From positions 224,001-288,000 of the forward strand of contig JBEKOM010000001.1 in the NCBI GenBank assembly GCA_049521795.1: a stretch of 64,000 bases of DNA, given 5' to 3'. The notes beneath the pieces are model-generated. The model made no database searches and was not told the DNA's origin. It saw only the letters and a program-made list of their open reading frames with translations. This DNA is from Candidatus Bathyarchaeia archaeon (lineage in GTDB: Archaea; Thermoproteota; Bathyarchaeia; Bathyarchaeales; Bathycorpusculaceae). Numbering within the stretch: the first letter of the stretch is position 1; each line of letters starts with the position of its first letter. Below, piece by piece: positions 11,142 to 41,244 of this stretch. The translations under genes were made by a program, and so were the position numbers.

Positions 11142-11606
11142 ATGCTGAGATTGACGTTCAGAATAGTGAGATATAGAACTGAATATCGGGATGTCGTCGT
11201 GGGGCTGTGGCGAACATGTAACCTAGTCGTTCCCCAGAATGACCCGGTGGAAGACATAGAGAAGAAGATGCATTTCCAACCGAATCTTTTCCTTATAGGC
11301 CTGTTGGATGGGAAGGTGATAGGTTCAATCATGGTTGGTTACGATGGTCACAGAGGTTGGATAAACTATCTTGCTATCACTCCTGAAGATCAGAGATACG
11401 GCTACGGCAGAAAACTGGTTCAAAAAGCCATAGATGAGCTAAAGAAGATGGGTTGCCAGAAGGTAAACCTGCAGATTCGCAGAAGCAATGACAAGGTGAT
11501 CGACTTCTACAAACATATTGGTTTCAAAGAAGATGATGTAGTCAGTCTAGGCATGAGACTCGCTGCAAGGCAACGTACACTTCGTGGCGGGCGGGGTGGG
11601 ATTTGA
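11142..11606 (+). CDS. GNAT acetyltransferase (YpeA-like)
   Basis: MVGYDGHRGWINYLA, QRYGYG and FYKHIGF motifs; the last 22 nt overlap the tRNA 3' end on the other strand. Confidence 0.9.
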   Translation: MLRLTFRIVRYRTEYRDVVVGLWRTCNLVVPQNDPVEDIEKKMHFQPNLFLIGLLDGKVIGSIMVGYDGHRGWINYLAITPEDQRYGYGRKLVQKAIDELKKMGCQKVNLQIRRSNDKVIDFYKHIGFKEDDVVSLGMRLAARQRTLRGGRGGI

Positions 11607-11630
11607 ACCCACGACCACCAACTTAGGAGG

Positions 11631-11644
11631 CTGGTGCTCTATCC
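11631..11644 (+). repeat. Left att core CTGGTGCTCTATCC
   Basis: Identical to 18129-18142. A second 26-bp identity block links 11694-11719 with 18137-18162. Confidence 0.88.
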
Positions 11645-11697
11645 AGACCAAGCCACAATTCAGGGAGCACCCCCCACAAGAATAATGACCCAGCTAT
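11643..11697 (-). other. tRNA intron with bulge-helix-bulge motif (about position 19/20)
   Basis: Central helix GGAC/GUCU with two GGA bulges. Cutting GG^A in each bulge regenerates exactly the intronless D-arm found at 18129-18160. Confidence 0.8.
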
Positions 11698-12640
11698 CCG
11701 TCCTGAGCTACCCGCCCAATACATACAGCAACTACCAAGTATAGAAAAGCTTCTAAGACACCTCGAAGGAAAAGGCCGAAGCCCAAACACAGTAACAGCC
11801 TACACTAAAAACCTCAAAGCCTTAGCACTACGAGCAAACCTACAAGACCCCGAAGCAGTAGAAATAGAAATAGCACGCTACAAAAAGAAAAACGAAAGAC
11901 CCGCAACCAACAACTACAAATCCAAACTATGCGACTGCTACAATACCTACTGCAAATTCTACAAAATCCAATGGGAAAAAGCAATCTACACACCCGAACC
12001 CACAACCATACAACCACCATCCAACGAAAAGATACTAATGTTCGTCGCATCCGCCAAAGGCACACTAAGCCTAAAAATTGACATCAGCAACCAAACAGGA
12101 CTCAGACCCATAGAGGTTCAGGGCGAAAAAGGACTACACGCAAAGGACATTCACCCAGACCAAAAAACAATAACAGCCCGAATAACCAAAGGATGCAACG
12201 CAAGACCACCACTTCCAATATCGCCCGAACTTACCGCAAGACTCCAAACATACATAACAAAAAACAACTTACAACCCGACGACCTACTGTTCAAAGGAAG
12301 CGAACGACGGTACGGCGAACACTTCAGAACCTTCAGAAACAGACTAGCCAAAAAACTAAACGACCCAACAATCAAAACAATCCGACTCTACGACCTAAGA
12401 CACGCCTACGCCACAAGACAACTCCGAAGAACACAAAACGCCGAAACCGTCAGAATAATAATGGGCCACAAAAGACTAGATACAACACAAAAATACCTGC
12501 ACCTACTCGGACTAGACAACGGCGAATGGATAGTTGAAGGAACAACAGACAAAAAACGAGCACAAGAACTACTAACCGCAGACTTCACTTACCAACTGAC
12601 AACACCAGACGGAACAATGCTCTTCAAAAAACCGAAATAA
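11645..12640 (+). CDS. int: Tyrosine integrase, C-terminal part Int(C) of a split gene
   Basis: Frame is open from 11627 with no ATG until 12038. Includes a SAM-like segment (GRSPNTVTAYTKNL) and catalytic TGLRPIE, K, YDLRH and MGH...TTQKY. Confidence 0.9.
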   Translation, partial: RPSHNSGSTPHKNNDPAIRPELPAQYIQQLPSIEKLLRHLEGKGRSPNTVTAYTKNLKALALRANLQDPEAVEIEIARYKKKNERPATNNYKSKLCDCYNTYCKFYKIQWEKAIYTPEPTTIQPPSNEKILMFVASAKGTLSLKIDISNQTGLRPIEVQGEKGLHAKDIHPDQKTITARITKGCNARPPLPISPELTARLQTYITKNNLQPDDLLFKGSERRYGEHFRTFRNRLAKKLNDPTIKTIRLYDLRHAYATRQLRRTQNAETVRIIMGHKRLDTTQKYLHLLGLDNGEWIVEGTTDKKRAQELLTADFTYQLTTPDGTMLFKKPK

Positions 12641-12791
12641 AAACAACCTTCTTTTTCTCCTTTCAGTATCATGCTTAACCATTATGTCGCGCTCGCATCA
12701 CGCTCGCGCTCCAACTTACAAGAACTCAAAACAACAATAAGCAGAAAAGGCAGAGCAGTTAAGCGCGTGCGAACTAATCATTAAATACTGA

Positions 12792-13223
12792 ATGCAACAT
12801 ACTGCTCTTGGTGATTCCACGGAAGAACTGAAGAAGAAGTTTATAGTTGAAGAGAAACTGGATGAAAAACGGGTTACCAATTACGTCGAAAGAATTCTTC
12901 CCTTCTGCAAGATATCGAAAGATGGTATGGTAATAGCTGAAGCCAAAGATTTGAAATCACTGCAGAAAGTCAAGCTGGCTTTGGTAGCGAGATATCTAGC
13001 AAACTATCTCGACAAAAACATACCTGCTGAAGTCACTAACGAGGAATTAAGCACTTCTCTAATTATCCCAGAAGACCAGATTGCGGCAAGAATAGCCGAA
13101 CTAAGAGAAGACAAATTCGCAATTCCTGTGAAAAGAGGTTCGCATCAAGCAAACCCTCTGCAAATTGAAGAATTCATAGCAGAGTTAGAGAACACACACC
13201 AAAAGAAAGCGGAGAAACCTTAG
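12792..13223 (+). CDS. Hypothetical protein, possible winged-helix C-terminus
   Basis: 143-aa ORF whose stop overlaps the next start (TAGTG); EELSTSL...QIAARIAELRE resembles a wHTH. Confidence 0.7.
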   Translation: MQHTALGDSTEELKKKFIVEEKLDEKRVTNYVERILPFCKISKDGMVIAEAKDLKSLQKVKLALVARYLANYLDKNIPAEVTNEELSTSLIIPEDQIAARIAELREDKFAIPVKRGSHQANPLQIEEFIAELENTHQKKAEKP

Positions 13224-14014
13224 TGAATCTGAACGACTACTTTCCTAAAGATGAAGTCGAAGATGCCAAATACATAATTCATGAATTTCATGATAAACTG
13301 CTTCTTGATGACAAACCGAGCGACAAAACTGCATTGCTACTGTCACTCTACATGTGCTCTAACAAGAACAAGCAATCCGAGATTACGTACGGCGAAGTTA
13401 GGAAGCTATTCGTTACGCTTGGCAGAAAGGAAGACAATTTCGCAGTGAATCTGTTCAATGCAAAGAGAGAGGAGCTTGTGGATGAAAGACAAGAAGGGCG
13501 AGCAAAATTACTCAGCTTGAAAGTCAAGGGATTAAAAGAAGTAAAGGACACGTTAGGAGAAACGATTGGAGTCAAAACATGGCTGATTGAATCTGGTAAG
13601 GTTTATAGTGGAAAGAAACTTTTCCAAGAGATAGTAATGTCGAAGATTGGTTCTGCAGCCAAAATCTGTGACCCATATTGCGGAACTAGAATTCTCGAGT
13701 TGATAAGTGGAATTGAACACAAGTGCGCAATCTTTCTTTTGACACAAGCAATCGAACAAAAGGAATCCTTCAAAAGGGAGTTGATAGATTTCTCAAAGGA
13801 ATTTCAGCACTTGAAAATTGAGGTTAGAATTTTCAATGGAAAGACGTTGCATGACAGATACATAATATCGGATGGCAATTGCTGGTCTGTTGGTTCAAGT
13901 CTGAAGGATTTTGGGAATAAAGACACCACATTAACGAAACTGGAAGACGAAGTAAGATATGCCGTAGAAGAAATGTTCGACAAGAGATGGCAAGAAGCCA
14001 CTCCGTTTCCATAA
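13223..14014 (+). CDS. wHTH-like N-terminus plus PLD-like nuclease domain
   Basis: ICDPY strand and HDRYIISD-x6-GSS, an HxR variant of the HxKxxxxD-x6-GS motif. Confidence 0.72.
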   Translation: MNLNDYFPKDEVEDAKYIIHEFHDKLLLDDKPSDKTALLLSLYMCSNKNKQSEITYGEVRKLFVTLGRKEDNFAVNLFNAKREELVDERQEGRAKLLSLKVKGLKEVKDTLGETIGVKTWLIESGKVYSGKKLFQEIVMSKIGSAAKICDPYCGTRILELISGIEHKCAIFLLTQAIEQKESFKRELIDFSKEFQHLKIEVRIFNGKTLHDRYIISDGNCWSVGSSLKDFGNKDTTLTKLEDEVRYAVEEMFDKRWQEATPFP

Positions 14015-14184
14015 ATCGCGCGCGCATAGCAGGAACATAATAGGCATTCGTTACACTTCTATCGTCTTTTCTGTTTTGTGCATTCTGTAAATAGAAAGGC
14101 GCGCTAGGCACAATTCAATGTTAACTATTAGAGAAGCAATCTGGCAGTGCAGTCTTTTTAACCAAGCTGGCTTTATTCTTTGTT

Positions 14185-15120
14185 ATGCTGTCAACGACTC
14201 ATTGTCTGCTCACTGGTGGAAGATGTGCTCATTTACCTATCTCTGTTGAATTGAACAGTTTCTTCGTATCCGAGCCTTACGATGAAGAAAGGCAACAAAG
14301 GGAACTCGCAATCAAGAAAGCACTAGAAGGTTTTAACTACATAATATCGGACCACAAAATCATGAATATTGCTCTCACATGCAAGATATGCCGTCAAATT
14401 CAATCATCAGAATTTGGAATCGTAGACATATCTGGATGTAATCCGAACGTCCTGATTGAATTAGGTATGCTGTACGGTTTCAGCAAACCGACAATTATAT
14501 TACTTAAGAAAAGCGAGCACCCTGAGTTTGACGTTCCATCGAACATTAAGGGAATCGAGCAAATTCGATACGAGGATTTTGACGAAATCACTGGAAAAAT
14601 AAAGAAAACCGTGAGCGTGTTTTTTGAGCTTCGGGCCAAAATGGATGAATACATAATTGACATGAGACCCATGCTTCAGCATCTCATACGGAGGCTTGAA
14701 ATTGAAATTGAAACGAGAAAATTGGTCGAAACTGGACTCAAATCTCAGATTATTGATTTCAAGACTCTTGGAAATGTTGGGGTTGTTATACTTGACAAAG
14801 GAACAAGAAATGGTGTCAAAACAGGCATGATTTTTGAGGTCTACCGCTCTGATAGAATCTCTATGGGAGACTATCTAGAAGAGAATGTTGGTCTAATCAT
14901 AGTGACATTTGCTCAAGAAAGAATTGCACAGTGTCAACCATTACAGATTGACCCAGACCTGCAGTTCTGGAAAGATGTTTCTTCAAACACTTTTGCCAAA
15001 AATGTCGTTAAGCCATACCCGAGTAAGACGTACAAAGATATTTCGATAGAGCAAGCAAAGACTATCCTAAGCAAAGCAGAAATATTGCACGAATACATGT
15101 ACTCTGGTAGGGTATGTTGA
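14185..15120 (+). CDS. Nucleoside 2-deoxyribosyltransferase/TIR-like domain fused to a FlgT_C-like beta domain
   Basis: FVSEPY...IVDISGCNPNVLIELG...KPTIIL at the N-terminus; VILDKGTRNGVKTGMIFEVY at the C-terminus. Confidence 0.7.
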   Translation: MLSTTHCLLTGGRCAHLPISVELNSFFVSEPYDEERQQRELAIKKALEGFNYIISDHKIMNIALTCKICRQIQSSEFGIVDISGCNPNVLIELGMLYGFSKPTIILLKKSEHPEFDVPSNIKGIEQIRYEDFDEITGKIKKTVSVFFELRAKMDEYIIDMRPMLQHLIRRLEIEIETRKLVETGLKSQIIDFKTLGNVGVVILDKGTRNGVKTGMIFEVYRSDRISMGDYLEENVGLIIVTFAQERIAQCQPLQIDPDLQFWKDVSSNTFAKNVVKPYPSKTYKDISIEQAKTILSKAEILHEYMYSGRVC

Positions 15121-15509
15121 TGTCAGCTATGCTGAAGGGCAAAATTCTGAAAATCTTGAGTAGTTACAGCGTTGTCATCAGTCTTGGCAAGGAGCAAGGC
15201 GTTACAAAGGATATGAAATTCATTATTTATGAGGAAGGGGATATGATAAAGGATCCCGAAACTGGAGCAGATATTGAGAAATTGGAAATTCTGAAAGGAG
15301 AAGTGACTGTCACTCAGGTCCAAGAAAAAATCAGCGTTGCAGAAAGCTTTGCGATCGAAAAGAGAGTATACAATCCTCTTGATGTGGTGTACGCATACAC
15401 ATCTAGAACTGTCATAACAAAAGAGAAGAAACCGCTAACTGACGAAGCCATTGAAGCTCCTGCTCCTTCTAAAGTGAAAATCGGAGACCTTGTCAGGCAA
15501 ATTTCGTGA
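15114..15509 (+). CDS. Stand-alone FlgT_C-like beta-barrel protein
   Basis: VVISLGKEQGVTKDMKFIIY...DPETG...VTQVQEKISVA...KIGDLV; overlaps the upstream stop. Confidence 0.68.
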   Translation: MLMSAMLKGKILKILSSYSVVISLGKEQGVTKDMKFIIYEEGDMIKDPETGADIEKLEILKGEVTVTQVQEKISVAESFAIEKRVYNPLDVVYAYTSRTVITKEKKPLTDEAIEAPAPSKVKIGDLVRQIS

Positions 15510-15746
15510 TATCCTCACAACACGATGTTGAACAGGGTGCTCGAGCCAAGTCGTGCGCAACACCAATAACCATACTCTAAAAAGCCTCCAAAATCAGCCA
15601 GCCATCAACAAAAGACCAACGTCTCTTACGATAACCAGACAACTTAACCAAACGCTTCAAGGGAACAGACTCAATACGGCAACCCTGAGCACGAACAGAA
15701 ACAAACAGACGCACCTTGCCCAAAAGCACAGCCTTCATAGCTACCG

Positions 15747-16724
15747 CTATTCGACTCGACGGATTACAGCGTCAGGATAGTTAGGTTGACCGAGCTCATC
15801 AAACTCATAGTCAACAAACCAAGGAACATAGTCAGGGTGACCGACATCCTTAACGATGTGACGCTTACCAACGTAAGCGCACGTACCCATTTCTTCACCG
15901 CAAGCAGGACAGACATCTTCGGACTCCAACCGCACACCCTTAAACTTACGATAACTCATCGAACCAAACCACGTGACAACGTGAAAACGCCCGACACCGA
16001 CCCGAATCGTCGCATGGTTCAACTGATACCAAGCCGTACCGAGAAGGGTCTTGCGTTTATCGTGAACCTTAACGAGAATGCCATCCTTTTCACCGCATCT
16101 ATAATTACGGTCAACAAAGCCACCGCAACCCTTGAAACAAGCCCTCTTGCAAGCACGGCACTTCTCTCGGCCAGCGACAGAAGCGAGAGTGTGATAGTGA
16201 GGACTCCAAACCAAACGCTGAAGGATTCTGTTAATGCGGAATCCGTGAAAAATCATGCAACCGCCGACAACGCCCCTGTCCAGCAAAGCCTTTCTAGCCT
16301 TCACTCGCAACGCGACCTCAGGCAAATGCCTATCAGCCTCAGGAAAAGACACCGTGACGTGCTCGGCAACACCTAGACCACGCCTCTCAGCCTCAATCAA
16401 ACGGCCCTCAATACTACGAGCCTCACGGAGAGCCCAACCGCGAATAAAGCAGACAGGACAGCTACTCTTATGACACCACAGATGCTTATGACGAACAACT
16501 ACCTTATCCGTACAATCTACCCCGCCAACGAAAACGCCTTTATGCCCTTCGACGTTCTTACAAACCTTGTAAGCAACCCAACGACCGCAAAAATCGCAAG
16601 TTTTAGCACCCCTGCCAACAGGCTGATAATTCTCATGCCCAACGTTGTCAACGGGCAGACACCAATACTTATTCTTCAAAATAGCCCTATTCAAACGCAG
16701 ACGCTCAGAAAAGGAACGGTTCAC
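15747..16724 (-). CDS. rep: Rolling-circle replication initiator (HUH endonuclease) with Zn-binding motifs
   Basis: Motif I EHVTVS, motif II SPHYHTL, motif III WYQLNH; several CxxC pairs including C-terminal CPACG. Confidence 0.82.
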   Translation of the reverse strand: MNRSFSERLRLNRAILKNKYWCLPVDNVGHENYQPVGRGAKTCDFCGRWVAYKVCKNVEGHKGVFVGGVDCTDKVVVRHKHLWCHKSSCPVCFIRGWALREARSIEGRLIEAERRGLGVAEHVTVSFPEADRHLPEVALRVKARKALLDRGVVGGCMIFHGFRINRILQRLVWSPHYHTLASVAGREKCRACKRACFKGCGGFVDRNYRCGEKDGILVKVHDKRKTLLGTAWYQLNHATIRVGVGRFHVVTWFGSMSYRKFKGVRLESEDVCPACGEEMGTCAYVGKRHIVKDVGHPDYVPWFVDYEFDELGQPNYPDAVIRRVE

Positions 16725-16748
16725 AGCCTCAACCGATACCAGCCAAAA

Positions 16749-16967
16749 TCACCTCAACTCTCCATTCAAATAACGATCAGGATGCTTCTCTACCCACTCC
16801 ACAAATCTCGCATCCTCTTCATCCTCCTCATCCATCTCACGCTCAAATCTCCTATAATGAGGACATTTGAAACACCTAGCCATGATTCCAAACTTTGCGT
16901 CTTTACGATACGAACAGAGAACGTCAGGCAAAAACGCGCAGGATAACAACGTTTCAGATGAAGCCAT
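16749..16967 (-). CDS. Small Cys-rich protein with acidic tail
   Basis: 72 aa, C-x7-C and CFKC motifs; immediately upstream of rep and co-oriented. Confidence 0.65.
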   Translation of the reverse strand: MASSETLLSCAFLPDVLCSYRKDAKFGIMARCFKCPHYRRFEREMDEEDEEDARFVEWVEKHPDRYLNGELR

Positions 16968-17050
16968 TCCTTACATCCCTCTCTAAATCATTCCCTAATC
17001 AACGAATGAGATATATAGATATTCAAGGGTATACTCATAATTGAGGGACA

Positions 17051-17788
17051 ATGGTGAATCCTAACAATTCCAGCTACAAACAGTACAACCAACAACTGAT
17101 TCTAATGGCTCTTTTAGACGGTCAATGGCACCGAAACATGGAACTCAAAGAGAAAACCAAATTGACCGCTCGCACATTATCCAAGCATTTAGATGAATTG
17201 GAAGAAGAACTTCACTGGATAGAAAAGAAAAAAGATACTGAAAGCGGAAAATACCCATATCCCGTTCTCTACAAAGCCAACCCGACAACCATAAAACACA
17301 CAAAATTCGTCATGTCAATCCACGAATATGCGGACAACATAGAAACAACGTTAAAGGAAACAAAAGACCCCTTCCTAATGTTAGATAATTTTCACATGCT
17401 CAACCAACTAACCTTCACACTAATCTTGATGGCAGTTCAAAGTAACAAATACATGACTTGGAAACAAATAGATTATGCGACAAGCTTCTTTCTTTTTTCA
17501 CCTTACGAAATCTATACTCAAAACCTAGTTACAGCAATCACCAAAGCCATACAATCAGGCGCACGATTTGACGTCAAACAACTATTAGTATCTCAAGCGA
17601 AACGACGAAGAGTAATTCCCGAAGAGATTATCAAACCCTACGACGAACTGGGAATACTAACGCCGTATCCGACAAAGCACGTTACGGCAAAGCGTGACCT
17701 AATAACGCAAGACAAAAATCAAACTTACACACGCACTGGGAAGTCTCCTCGAAGGCATAAGCCTTTCCCTCATTTAAAAAAGAGGTAA
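17051..17788 (+). CDS. Winged-HTH transcriptional regulator (element repressor candidate)
   Basis: ILMALLDG...ELKEKTKLTARTLSKHLDELE...VLY; divergent from the rep operon. Confidence 0.75.
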   Translation: MVNPNNSSYKQYNQQLILMALLDGQWHRNMELKEKTKLTARTLSKHLDELEEELHWIEKKKDTESGKYPYPVLYKANPTTIKHTKFVMSIHEYADNIETTLKETKDPFLMLDNFHMLNQLTFTLILMAVQSNKYMTWKQIDYATSFFLFSPYEIYTQNLVTAITKAIQSGARFDVKQLLVSQAKRRRVIPEEIIKPYDELGILTPYPTKHVTAKRDLITQDKNQTYTRTGKSPRRHKPFPHLKKR

Positions 17789-17870
17789 AGTTAGAAATCA
17801 TCCCGTCATGGAAGCCACACAACTTGAAAACAAAAGTGACTCGCTAGGCTTCCAATGACTAGAATCTTTT

Positions 17871-18041
17871 ATGAAAGGCATATTGCCTTCTCGTCGCGTC
17901 AACGAAAAAACAATGAAGGTCTGTGAAATGAGAATCGGAGATGTGAAAATGAGAACCCTTAATAGAACCCCAGAAGAAGTACGAGTCGCCCAGCTATGGG
18001 CAGAAATGGAACTATCAAAACTTTTGAAGGTGAAAGAATGA
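17871..18041 (+). CDS. Small ORF (up to 56 aa) coupled to Int(N)
   Basis: Manual translation ends ...MRTLNRTPEEVRVAQLWAEMELSKLLKVKE*; its TGA overlaps the Int(N) ATG (ATGA). May start at 17949. Confidence 0.45.
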   Translation: MKGILPSRRVNEKTMKVCEMRIGDVKMRTLNRTPEEVRVAQLWAEMELSKLLKVKE

Positions 18042-18178
18042 CTACAGAAGAGACTGAAACACAGGGTAAAGCCACAAATCCAATGGACAATCAAGCAGAA
18101 AACAAAGAAGCTTTACTAAGGATAAAGTCTGGTGCTCTATCCGTCCTGAGCTACCCGCCCAACATTTCATTAGGCTGA
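18038..18178 (+). CDS. int: Integrase N-terminal fragment Int(N)
   Basis: AGGTGA RBS then MTTEETETQGKATNPMDNQAENKEALLRIKSGALS; reads the att core in the same frame (GGT GCT CTA TCC) as Int(C). Confidence 0.78.
   Translation: MTTEETETQGKATNPMDNQAENKEALLRIKSGALSVLSYPPNISLG
18129..18160 (-). repeat. Right att site: intronless 5' fragment of tRNA-Arg(CCT)
   Basis: Reverse complement GGGCGGGTAGCTCAGGACGGATAGAGCACCAG is the tRNA 5' end up to the anticodon stem, without the intron. Confidence 0.9.
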
Positions 18179-18264
18179 GACTAGTTTGATGCGGTGTAGA
18201 TTTTAACCTAGTGCCAGCCTCTGCAAAAAAGTTTAACTGCACACAAATATCAACCTTTATCGCT

Positions 18265-18375
18265 GCGGGGGTACCCGAGCCAGGTCTAAATAGGCGGGCC
18301 AGAAGCCTAAGACAAGGGGGAGGACTTAAGATCCTCTGGCGAAGGCCTCCGTGGGTTCGAATCCCACCCCCCGCA
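18265..18375 (+). tRNA. tRNA-Leu(TAA) with a 26-nt D-loop intron (18290-18315)
   Basis: GCGGGGG/CCCCCGC acceptor stem, GAGGA-CTTAAGA-TCCTC anticodon arm, long variable arm, GTGGGTTCGAATCCCAC T-arm. Intron helix GTCT/AGAC with AAA and AAG bulges and a TAGGC/GCCTA stem. Confidence 0.92.
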
Positions 18376-18425
18376 CCTTTTCATTACGCGCTGGAAGAAC
18401 CCACTTGTCACTTCGGAACAATCGG

Positions 18426-40686: not shown

Positions 40687-41244
40687 ATGCCTAAAAAAAT
40701 AGGGGTAGAACTGATTGAAAACTTCCTAGTAGTTTGGAACCCCACAGACGGCTCAGAACTCTACAGAAAAGGGTTCTACGGCAAACCCCTCGGAATCGCC
40801 AAACCCAAAATCCCAGAATTCAACGTTCCACTTATTCTGGATCTGATGGAAGGCTTGTACCTGGTTGAAGAAGACATCATCACCGTTTACGAAGGCCCCA
40901 AAAAAATCAAAGTAGGCCCAAGGAAGCTCCGCCAAGTGGCCAAGCGACTGTACGAAGAGTTTGACGACAAGTACACTGTATACCGCGACCTAAGAGACAG
41001 CCAGTTGATCGTCACACCCGGCATAAAGTTCGGCTGCGACTTCGCCGTTTACAAACACGGCCCAGGAGTCGAACACGCCCCCTACATGGTCTCAGTCAAA
41101 AAAGCCAAATCCGAGATGACAGCCACCGAAATAGTCAAGGCCGGAAGACTCGCGACAACCGTCAGAAAAAGGTTCATAATAGCCGTTCCCAACTCGGAGA
41201 AAGCAAAGACAAGATACTTAATATTCAAATGGTTCAAAGCGTAA
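40687..41244 (+). CDS. endA: tRNA-splicing endonuclease, catalytic subunit
   Basis: VYRDLR...GIKFGCDFAVY...H...GRLATTVRK with the Tyr/His/Lys triad. Confidence 0.93.
   Translation: MPKKIGVELIENFLVVWNPTDGSELYRKGFYGKPLGIAKPKIPEFNVPLILDLMEGLYLVEEDIITVYEGPKKIKVGPRKLRQVAKRLYEEFDDKYTVYRDLRDSQLIVTPGIKFGCDFAVYKHGPGVEHAPYMVSVKKAKSEMTATEIVKAGRLATTVRKRFIIAVPNSEKAKTRYLIFKWFKA

Follow-up and report, generated by a model that had tools for sequence, protein, structure and literature searches.

The window considered here, a stretch of 64,000 nucleotides from a Candidatus Bathyarchaeia archaeon (genome G000; assembly GCA_049521795.1, contig JBEKOM010000001.1, positions 224,001 to 288,000), holds an integrated element of 6,498 bp, counted from core to core (11645..18142), together with the tRNA-Arg(CCT) gene at which it is integrated. 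The sequencing runs found to contain the window, ten of them, are peat metagenomes, and there is no RNA run among them. At the left junction, attL, the minus strand of 11585..11717 reads as a 133-nt tRNA-Arg with anticodon CCT whose D-loop is interrupted by 55 nt at about position 20/21; the 5′ exon is 11698-11717, the insert 11643-11697 and the 3′ exon 11585-11642. These boundaries were set by means of an intronless 5′ half of the gene at the right junction, attR (18129..18162, minus strand), and of the intronless genes of relatives. The half comprises the first ~34 nt of the gene and is continuous with the host flank. Removal of nt 21-75 from the interrupted gene gives exactly the D-arm of this half, and also that of the genes in two genomes of the same genus (G001 and G002) save for D-loop nt 16. 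The interrupted copy is the only full-length tRNA-Arg(CCT) gene in G000. It is called whole neither by ARAGORN, which without its intron option returned no tRNA gene across the window, nor by Rfam at the gathering score, where the sole match among 4227 families is to the 3′ part (11595-11656, 40.7 bits, model positions 7-64 of 71).

Two blocks of tRNA sequence recur at the borders of the element. The first, found by repeat comparison and the putative block of crossover, is a 14-bp core with copies at 11631..11644 (attL) and 18129..18142 (attR). It corresponds to nt 21-34 of tRNA-Arg(CCT), that is to the 3′ part of the D-loop, the D-stem and the start of the anticodon stem, and its exact 14 nt sit inside a block that matches at 16 of 17 positions (11628-11644 versus 18126-18142). 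The second is a repeat of 26 bp made up of tRNA nt 1-24 and 2 upstream nt. Its left copy (11694..11719) contains the element-borne 5′ exon, its right copy (18137-18162) lies inside the intronless 5′ half, and the two are 100% identical. Both 5′-exon copies (11698-11717 and 18141-18160) have G at D-loop nt 16 (GGAC), where G001, G002 and a third genome of the genus, G010, have U. As one copy is host-derived and the other element-derived, G16 either was present in both partners or results from homogenisation of the repeats; elsewhere in the family, GGAC alleles without an intron occur (G285, G303, G346 and G451).

The attachment site of the element, attP, is inside its integrase open reading frame (ORF). 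Integration splits this ORF, so that Int(N) is at one border and Int(C) at the other. The target is a tRNA gene: one border restores it, and the opposite border has a direct repeat derived from the tRNA. Int(C) (11645..12640, plus strand) encodes, in 331 codons, the C-terminal part of a tyrosine recombinase that is XerA-like (PF00589, E 7.6e-13, residues 145-293). Its first ~24 codons are the antisense of insert and 5′ exon, and its frame is open from the tRNA onward, with no start codon before 12038. In a PDB profile search the best match of Int(C) was 4a8e, a XerC-like recombinase (E 2.5e-14), and none of the seven matches at E ≤ 0.01 named an SSV integrase; by sequence the integrase is XerA/XerC-like, and ‘SSV-type’ describes its architecture only. 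R160, K188, R258, H259 and Y290 are invariant, among others, in alignment A1, and are candidates for the conserved catalytic residues R..K..H-x-x-R..H/W..Y of tyrosine recombinases. Int(N) (18038..18142, plus strand) has 35 codons and ends GALS at the core; in the integrated state its ORF continues to 18178. The two parts are in frame solely across the core with the insert kept, which gives 390 open codons. Joined via the 26-bp block, they come to a stop after 12 codons, at the end of SYPPNTYSNYQV. A stop near 18066, with no ATG, GTG or TTG beyond it, closes the third frame. An earlier, sequence-only reading of the window had described the tRNA-Arg with its D-loop insert, the intronless half continuous with host DNA, the return to the exact mature D-arm on splicing, the in-frame joint through the core that keeps the intron on the circle, and the blocked frames of a crossover in the 26-bp block; the present analysis agrees with it on all of these.

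Which partner carried the insert cannot be told from the window alone, since crossover at the core and crossover in the 26-bp block give identical junction sequences, and outside evidence is needed. A host gene that already had the 55-nt intron could have recombined in the 26-bp block with an intronless attP, the intron then merely shortening the target. Besides the identity of the junctions, the existence of element-free intron-bearing genes, in G010 and at 7 of 30 loci described below, suits such a history. It is nonetheless highly improbable. The attP that it calls for would be without a functional integrase, given the stop after 12 codons and the lack of a start in the other frame. Further, G001 and G002 both have an intronless tRNA-Arg(CCT) at the locus, beside the same divergent tRNA-Leu that flanks the window's element on the right (18264..18376, plus strand, anticodon UAA by eye; a host-side marker in G001, G002 and G010). 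These two genomes are contiguous with 11583-11644 and with 18126-18377 of the window, segments that overlap at the core only. The gene of the left flank, for a host GNAT acetyltransferase (11142..11606, plus strand; PF00583, E 4.7e-18), overlaps the 3′ end of the tRNA and is partly present in G002 too. In G009 this tRNA is occupied by a related element whose insert differs and is 57 nt long.

Evidence on the same point comes from 109 related loci, 29 from genomes and 80 from metagenomes, obtained in scans with the integrase alignment. The order antisense tRNA 3′ part, core, insert, 5′ exon and Int(C) is present at 79 of them, in a survey of homologous integrases such as the sequence-only reading had advised; the other 30 comprise 3 that are attP-like, 3 at a contig edge, 4 without the core and 20 without the 5′ exon. 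Junctions with a core number 85, and 81 of these have an insert, in 80 cases of 39-99 nt (modes 52 and 55). The outlier is the 365-nt insert of L051, whose Int(C)-side piece is without the core. The left junction is intronless in 4 of the 85. Right junctions are intronless, as in the window, at L043, L046, L060, L062, L058, L051 and L054. L148 is a tandem array in which two Int(C) genes each have their own, different insert. Its middle junction is one intact ORF of Int(N), core, insert, 5′ exon and Int(C), and the N-terminus of that ORF is closely similar to Int(N) of the window. For each unit to have its own insert, crossover must have been at the core and the insert part of the element; crossover in the 5′ exon could not give this. 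The attP-like arrangement in one ORF is seen in the tandem array L148/L151 and in protein P0054. Of 60 distinct copies, moreover, 51 keep the Int(C) frame free of stops across insert and core, a further point against a host origin of the insert at this locus. A scan of viral contigs gave just 15 distant partial matches (26-49% identity), none of them usable.

From the empty sites of G001 and G002, the reading frames, the 79 loci, L148 and the 51 open copies we conclude that the insert belongs to the element and that the host gene had no intron before integration, as the sequence-only reading had supposed of its attB. That reading also predicted that relatives lacking the element are intronless. 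G001 and G002 are so, but G010 and 7 of 30 loci have inserts that belong to the same family and differ in sequence from the 55 nt of the window.

Whether the insert is an intron turns on the RNA. In the window it can be drawn as a canonical bulge-helix-bulge (BHB), with all four pairs of the central helix (C18:G70, A17:U71, G16:C72 and G15.U73), GGA in both bulges, an inner helix of 3 bp and an outer helix of 1 bp followed by the D-stem. A second geometry, shifted by 2 nt and giving the same product, emerged from minimum free energy folds; its bulges are AUA and AUA, its central helix has 3 of 4 pairs and its inner helix 10 bp. It is this shifted geometry, not the window's canonical one, which is the conserved form in relatives. 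The canonical geometry was rejected as a family-wide motif, as only 2 of 59 relatives have four of four pairs, so that the ‘near-ideal BHB’ of the sequence-only reading holds for the window and fails for the family. The conserved motif consists of the D-stem, a small internal loop with the 3′ junction, a short helix (in most copies ACGG against (A/C/U)(C/U)GG), a 3-nt bulge with the 5′ junction, and a long helix joining the ends of the insert. In this relaxed form the central helix has 4 pairs in 2 of the 59 relatives, 3 in 31 and 2 in 26; the common class has two G.A pairs, in terminal position. The inner helix is of at least 4 bp in 49 of the 59.

The helix of the insert ends has 7-10 bp and starts at a fixed distance from both junctions. 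Among 84 distinct pre-tRNAs its positions 1-7 are paired in 100, 98, 95, 93, 85, 80 and 76%, and 4-6 types of pair occur at each of these first seven positions, that is, there is covariation. The mean pairing of 0.86 falls to 0.35-0.47 once the register is displaced by 1-3 nt, and at least five contiguous pairs are present in 62 of the 84 sequences, against 67 of 4,200 shuffles. The 672 pairing cells include 463 Watson-Crick pairs, 117 G.U on the tRNA strand and 13 A.C. G.U pairing on the tRNA strand means that the pairing acts in tRNA-sense RNA, and not in DNA or in the integrase mRNA. G000 has two paralogs of EndA, the tRNA splicing endonuclease (PF01974), one at about 40960-41202 of the window (G000:C1:264960-265202, plus strand, in an open frame of 200 amino acids) and the second on contig 5. 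Two paralogs fit a two-subunit enzyme, and two-subunit EndA enzymes accept relaxed motifs.

If the insert were no intron, integration would break tRNA-Arg(CCT), AGG would be read by another tRNA-Arg, the insert would be an integrase linker only and the 5′ exon a relic. The CCU isoacceptor could be dispensable in this way if the UCU tRNA reads AGG, and the imperfect central helix of the conserved motif, as well as a gene that neither tRNA finder calls whole, would then be unsurprising. We think this unlikely. The covarying helix at its fixed distance, with 117 G.U against 13 A.C, is hard to account for by protein coding or by binding sites in DNA. The exons are intact and identical to those of intronless relatives, and the interrupted gene, the sole full-length copy in G000, belongs to a class that outlasts decay or loss of the integrase. 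The genome encodes two EndA proteins, and a non-standard insert is found in the neighbouring tRNA-Leu as well. The insert is thus predicted, from structure, to behave as an RNA intron.

Interrupted genes are also found where the element is reduced or absent. A strict interrupted-D-loop pattern was matched in 44 of 401 genomes of the order, none of them outside the window's family (43 of 247 in the family, 0 of 154 in the other eleven families); a strict intronless pattern was matched in 46 of 251 family genomes. Thirty interrupted genes of other genomes were tested for adjacent integrase homology with homologs of at least 290 amino acids, out of 120 fetched. Six lie by a full Int(C), 17 by a stub of 17-149 amino acids that is contiguous with the 5′ exon, and 7 have no integrase homology. 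In other genera ‘element-free’ means without such homology within ~1.5 kb; the divergent tRNA-Leu, found as a host-synteny marker at 0 of the 30 loci, is unusable there. Full Int(C), stub and none read as a decay series that would leave the intron in the host gene. The inserts of G010 are best matched by element-borne inserts of 43 nt, at a score per position of only 0.21-0.26, a modest likeness that would place them in the same class and not as the demonstrable footprint of a known element.

It is possible, though we lean against it, that the element delivers the intron at this locus and that the intron family itself arose in host genes and was captured by elements (with the core in and the 5′ exon out), the element-free introns being ancestral. 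Two blocks of homology should permit transfer either way. The clean intron-bearing genes L168-L170 and L172, from several species, have a similar upstream flank, which suggests vertical inheritance; some targets had an insert already, and intronless left junctions exist (the 4 of 85). The 17 of 30 genes with an integrase stub by the 5′ exon, however, speak for the direction from element to host, and the other families of the order have no match to the intron pattern among their 154 genomes. Intron pattern and elements were both found in one group only, as an observed co-occurrence. Capture of host introns by elements is mechanically as possible as delivery, and the intron may first have arisen in either host or element.

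The inserts themselves begin and end with a copy of D-loop sequence. Aligned to nt 21-60 followed by nt 7-20 of their own tRNA, they give a median z of 3.5 against shuffles, with 32 of the 59 above z = 3 and 44 above z = 2. Exact matches of 10-21 nt to the stretch from anticodon arm to T-stem of the resident tRNA occur in 18 of the 59 inserts; these follow the variant of the resident tRNA, and few or no shuffles reach equal length. A duplicate of nt 21-60 plus 7-20 would span 54 nt, close to the observed modes of 52 and 55. The insert thus resembles a decayed copy of the tRNA itself. Duplication of the D-arm would supply the flanking helices, as two copies of the D-stem, and a symmetric central helix from the D-loop, and might thereby account for the emergence of a motif fit for splicing. 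A tentative proposal, which may well prove wrong, is that dual-coding elements repeatedly install and fix D-loop introns, that the intron was born as a partial tRNA duplicate (~nt 21-56 then 7-20) at the attachment site, and that duplication alone would yield a two-fold symmetric BHB.

The course of events that we consider probable as a whole begins with an element that has the intron in its attP. Its XerA-like integrase would have the attachment site inside its own ORF (partitioning of SSV type), and attP, read antisense, would comprise the 14-bp core, a 55-nt spacer that serves as integrase linker, and then the first 20 nt of the tRNA, with a promoter-like flank upstream. Recombination between this core and that of a host gene without the intron, for which the comparison with relatives provides the demonstration, would yield two junctions. 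The left one would combine the 3′ part of the host gene with the element's spacer and its 5′ exon, and so hold a full gene that has an intron in its D-loop; at the right one, the intronless 5′ half of the host gene would be fused to Int(N). The spacer, BHB-like on the tRNA strand, would most likely be removed by the two-subunit splicing endonuclease of the host. Decay of the element, or its loss in one step via the 26-bp repeat of the 5′ exon, would then leave the intron in the host. The 5′ flank of the tRNA is also supplied by the element (11720..11750, minus strand). A consensus of 62 distinct flanks from related left junctions, taken with no gap adjustment, shows a T/A-rich, TTTTnTATA-like stretch ~-31 to -23 from the tRNA 5′ end, and on the opposite strand this stretch falls within conserved codons of the integrase (a P-x-I-E/Q motif with its invariant Ile). 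To judge from the consensus, the flank may be an element-supplied tRNA promoter.

Several observations weigh against this account. That the intron is spliced is predicted from structure. The conserved central helix is weak, with 2-3 Watson-Crick or G.U pairs plus A.G in 57 of 59; the 3′ cut site is in an internal loop of 3x3 or 4x4 and not in a clean 3-nt bulge; and the fold of the whole gene is unremarkable (z = -1.43, with 19 of 200 shuffles at least as good). At L049, L053 and L063 the right junction has an insert with no Int(C) behind it, so that some targets were already interrupted. In G010 a 43-nt insert lies on two contigs, flanked left and right by host DNA and without an integrase stub. 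Genomes with the intron pattern and with the intronless pattern are about equal in number in the family, and element-free intron alleles are common, so the intron could be an old host trait that elements copied. The sequences compared are kin, and counts across them overstate independence.

The search for joints in sequencing runs X1-X4, made in assembled contigs, belongs here as well. An attP back-joint or excised circle, looked for as the sequence-only reading had advised, was absent from the contigs of all four runs, nor was a free circular contig found. The attB for which that reading had also advised a search is represented by one weak contig of run X2. It joins 11634 to 18133 and skips exactly 6,498 nt, at a depth of 2.4 and with 31 nt on its short side, and it could be a relative's, because the exons are 100% identical within the genus. 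Parts of the element are without cover in run X4. Two other joints, 11616 to 18350 and 11644 to 18265, were set aside; they have very high depth and look like tRNAs of other organisms.

That an element can deliver a tRNA intron is already known as a concept, and its novelty was overrated at first. Sugahara et al. 2012 describe, for tRNA-Thr(GGU) of Caldiarchaeum subterraneum, two borders, one with a complete intron-bearing tRNA and one with an intronless 5′ fragment, that enclose a recombinase gene, and propose recombination of an intron-bearing attP with an intronless attB, adding that the intron may exclude other elements (PMC3293823). The window shares that border layout and agrees with their model of an element-delivered intron, with an intronless allele at the empty site in relatives. 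The Caldiarchaeum case is one locus, with a 1.87-kb insertion, the intron at 24/25 and an attP inferred and not seen, and its recombinase is pNOB8-like and lies beside the tRNA without overlapping it (PMC3293823). Here attP is in the integrase ORF, the intron is translated antisense, the insert is in the D-loop at ~20/21, and there are ~80 copies and a decay series. The single inferred locus of 2012 is the only explicit precedent found. Literature on Bathyarchaeota integrase-linked tRNA introns, or on an intron in an integrase-embedded attP, did not turn up in a search to which supplementary files were outside.

Among integrases, SSV1 is the model for the architecture. SSV1 duplicates 44 bp of the 3′ end of its tRNA-Arg; the Bathyarchaeon element instead exchanges the 5′ part together with the promoter for its own, and the tRNA copy that it carries is interrupted. 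Integrases of the SSV1 type, tyrosine recombinases of archaeal viruses and plasmids called ‘suicidal’, are described in the 2012 paper as having attP in their own gene, a split into Int(N) and Int(C), and tRNA-derived direct repeats (PMC3293823). Archaeal BHB introns of tRNAs at non-canonical positions are cut by EndA of broad specificity (PMC3239211, PMC3488258). The present inserts are like these in being short, in the pairing of their ends, and in junctions that are unpaired on opposite strands of a short helix, and they differ in a relaxed central helix with terminal G.A and in encoding protein on the other strand.

A link between tRNA introns and integrating elements at the same sites was also drawn in the hypothesis of Randau and Soll, that tRNA introns protect genes from such elements (as cited in PMC4390854). 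In the Bathyarchaeon family it is the element that brings the intron, the core is intact at both junctions, and no protection from the element's own family is evident. The tandem array L148 likewise speaks against protection from the same family, a point of difference from the proposal for Caldiarchaeum. The suggestion of the sequence-only reading that the intron alters the target for competitors is thus unsupported as far as elements of the same family are concerned, and survival and reuse of the target core disfavour a simple protective role of the intron.

In Thermoproteales, intron transposition between tRNA genes of one genome is a proposed route of recent gain in TACK archaea. By comparison with that route, a single tRNA species is hit here by site-specific recombination. 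A 2026 survey of Asgard archaea names the Thermoproteales transposition as a positive control, and reports no mobile-element signal for gains in its own set, calling the route of arrival open (bioRxiv 10.64898/2026.10.13.758758). What is new in the present family is a dual-coding intron, in which a stretch of 40-100 nt serves as an RNA splicing motif on one strand and as a protein frame on the other; family-wide scale with covariation and a decay series; the likeness of the insert to a decayed tRNA copy; and an element that supplies the 5′ part and the TATA-like flank, the latter as a putative promoter. The evidence supports a recurring, traceable route of intron gain by archaeal tRNA genes. 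One family shows intronless empty sites, occupied sites, a tandem array, stubs and clean intron genes, and with several states of the process available the hypothesis is testable by phylogeny and at the bench. If the tentative proposal above, with its tRNA duplication, is true, the family would be a worked example of birth, spread and fixation of an archaeal tRNA intron.

The element also has cargo. On the plus strand between the integrase parts are ORFs at 12792-13223, 13223-14014, 14185-15120, 15114-15509 and 16470-16946, and at 17051-17788 an ORF for a winged-helix protein; 15747-16724 is on the minus strand. The ORF at 13223-14014 is PLD-like (PADLOC PDC-S05, E 6.8e-19, with weak matches to DrmC and MIT_C) and that at 14185-15120 has a short TIR-like stretch (PF10137, E 2.4e-5; PADLOC TIR effector, E 3.5e-7). 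By these matches the two are candidate defence genes of the element.

The tRNA-Leu of the right flank has ~20 extra nt between D-arm and anticodon stem, and is called neither by ARAGORN nor by Rfam at the gathering score. The start of its insert is visible in G001 and G002 also, and from this the insert looks native to the host.

A different form of tRNA-Arg(CCT), with an insert of ~26-29 nt near 9/10, was seen at L010 (G004:C228 ~395-510) and L026 (G019:C111). It keeps an uninterrupted D-loop and is present too in contigs of peat runs X3 and X4 (loose ends, 11644); within the short flanks available, no integrase homology beyond the tRNA was found beside it.

At L051 (9520-10000, 18438) and L054 (6100-6300, 10000, 14401) a complete intronless tRNA-Arg stands beside the element. 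Beyond it come 150-270 nt of host flank, the same that lies next to the right junction, and then the Int(C)-side piece with insert and 5′ exon. This looks like a local duplication that restores an intronless gene next to the element.

L060 (CAZNTS010000002.1, 5,881 nt), titled as a Nitrospiraceae bacterium metagenome-assembled genome (MAG), has an archaeal tRNA-Arg with insert and a frame-broken integrase of 74% identity, and is probably a mis-binned archaeal contig.

Many integrase homologs in the databases are annotated with a start inside the stretch encoded by the insert. The integrases of many relatives may start there, and hence not be split at all. Four entries (P0002, P0035, P0052 and P0055) begin with MGFEPTT, the antisense of the tRNA T-arm, probably an annotation artefact of gene callers extending the ORF through the host tRNA.

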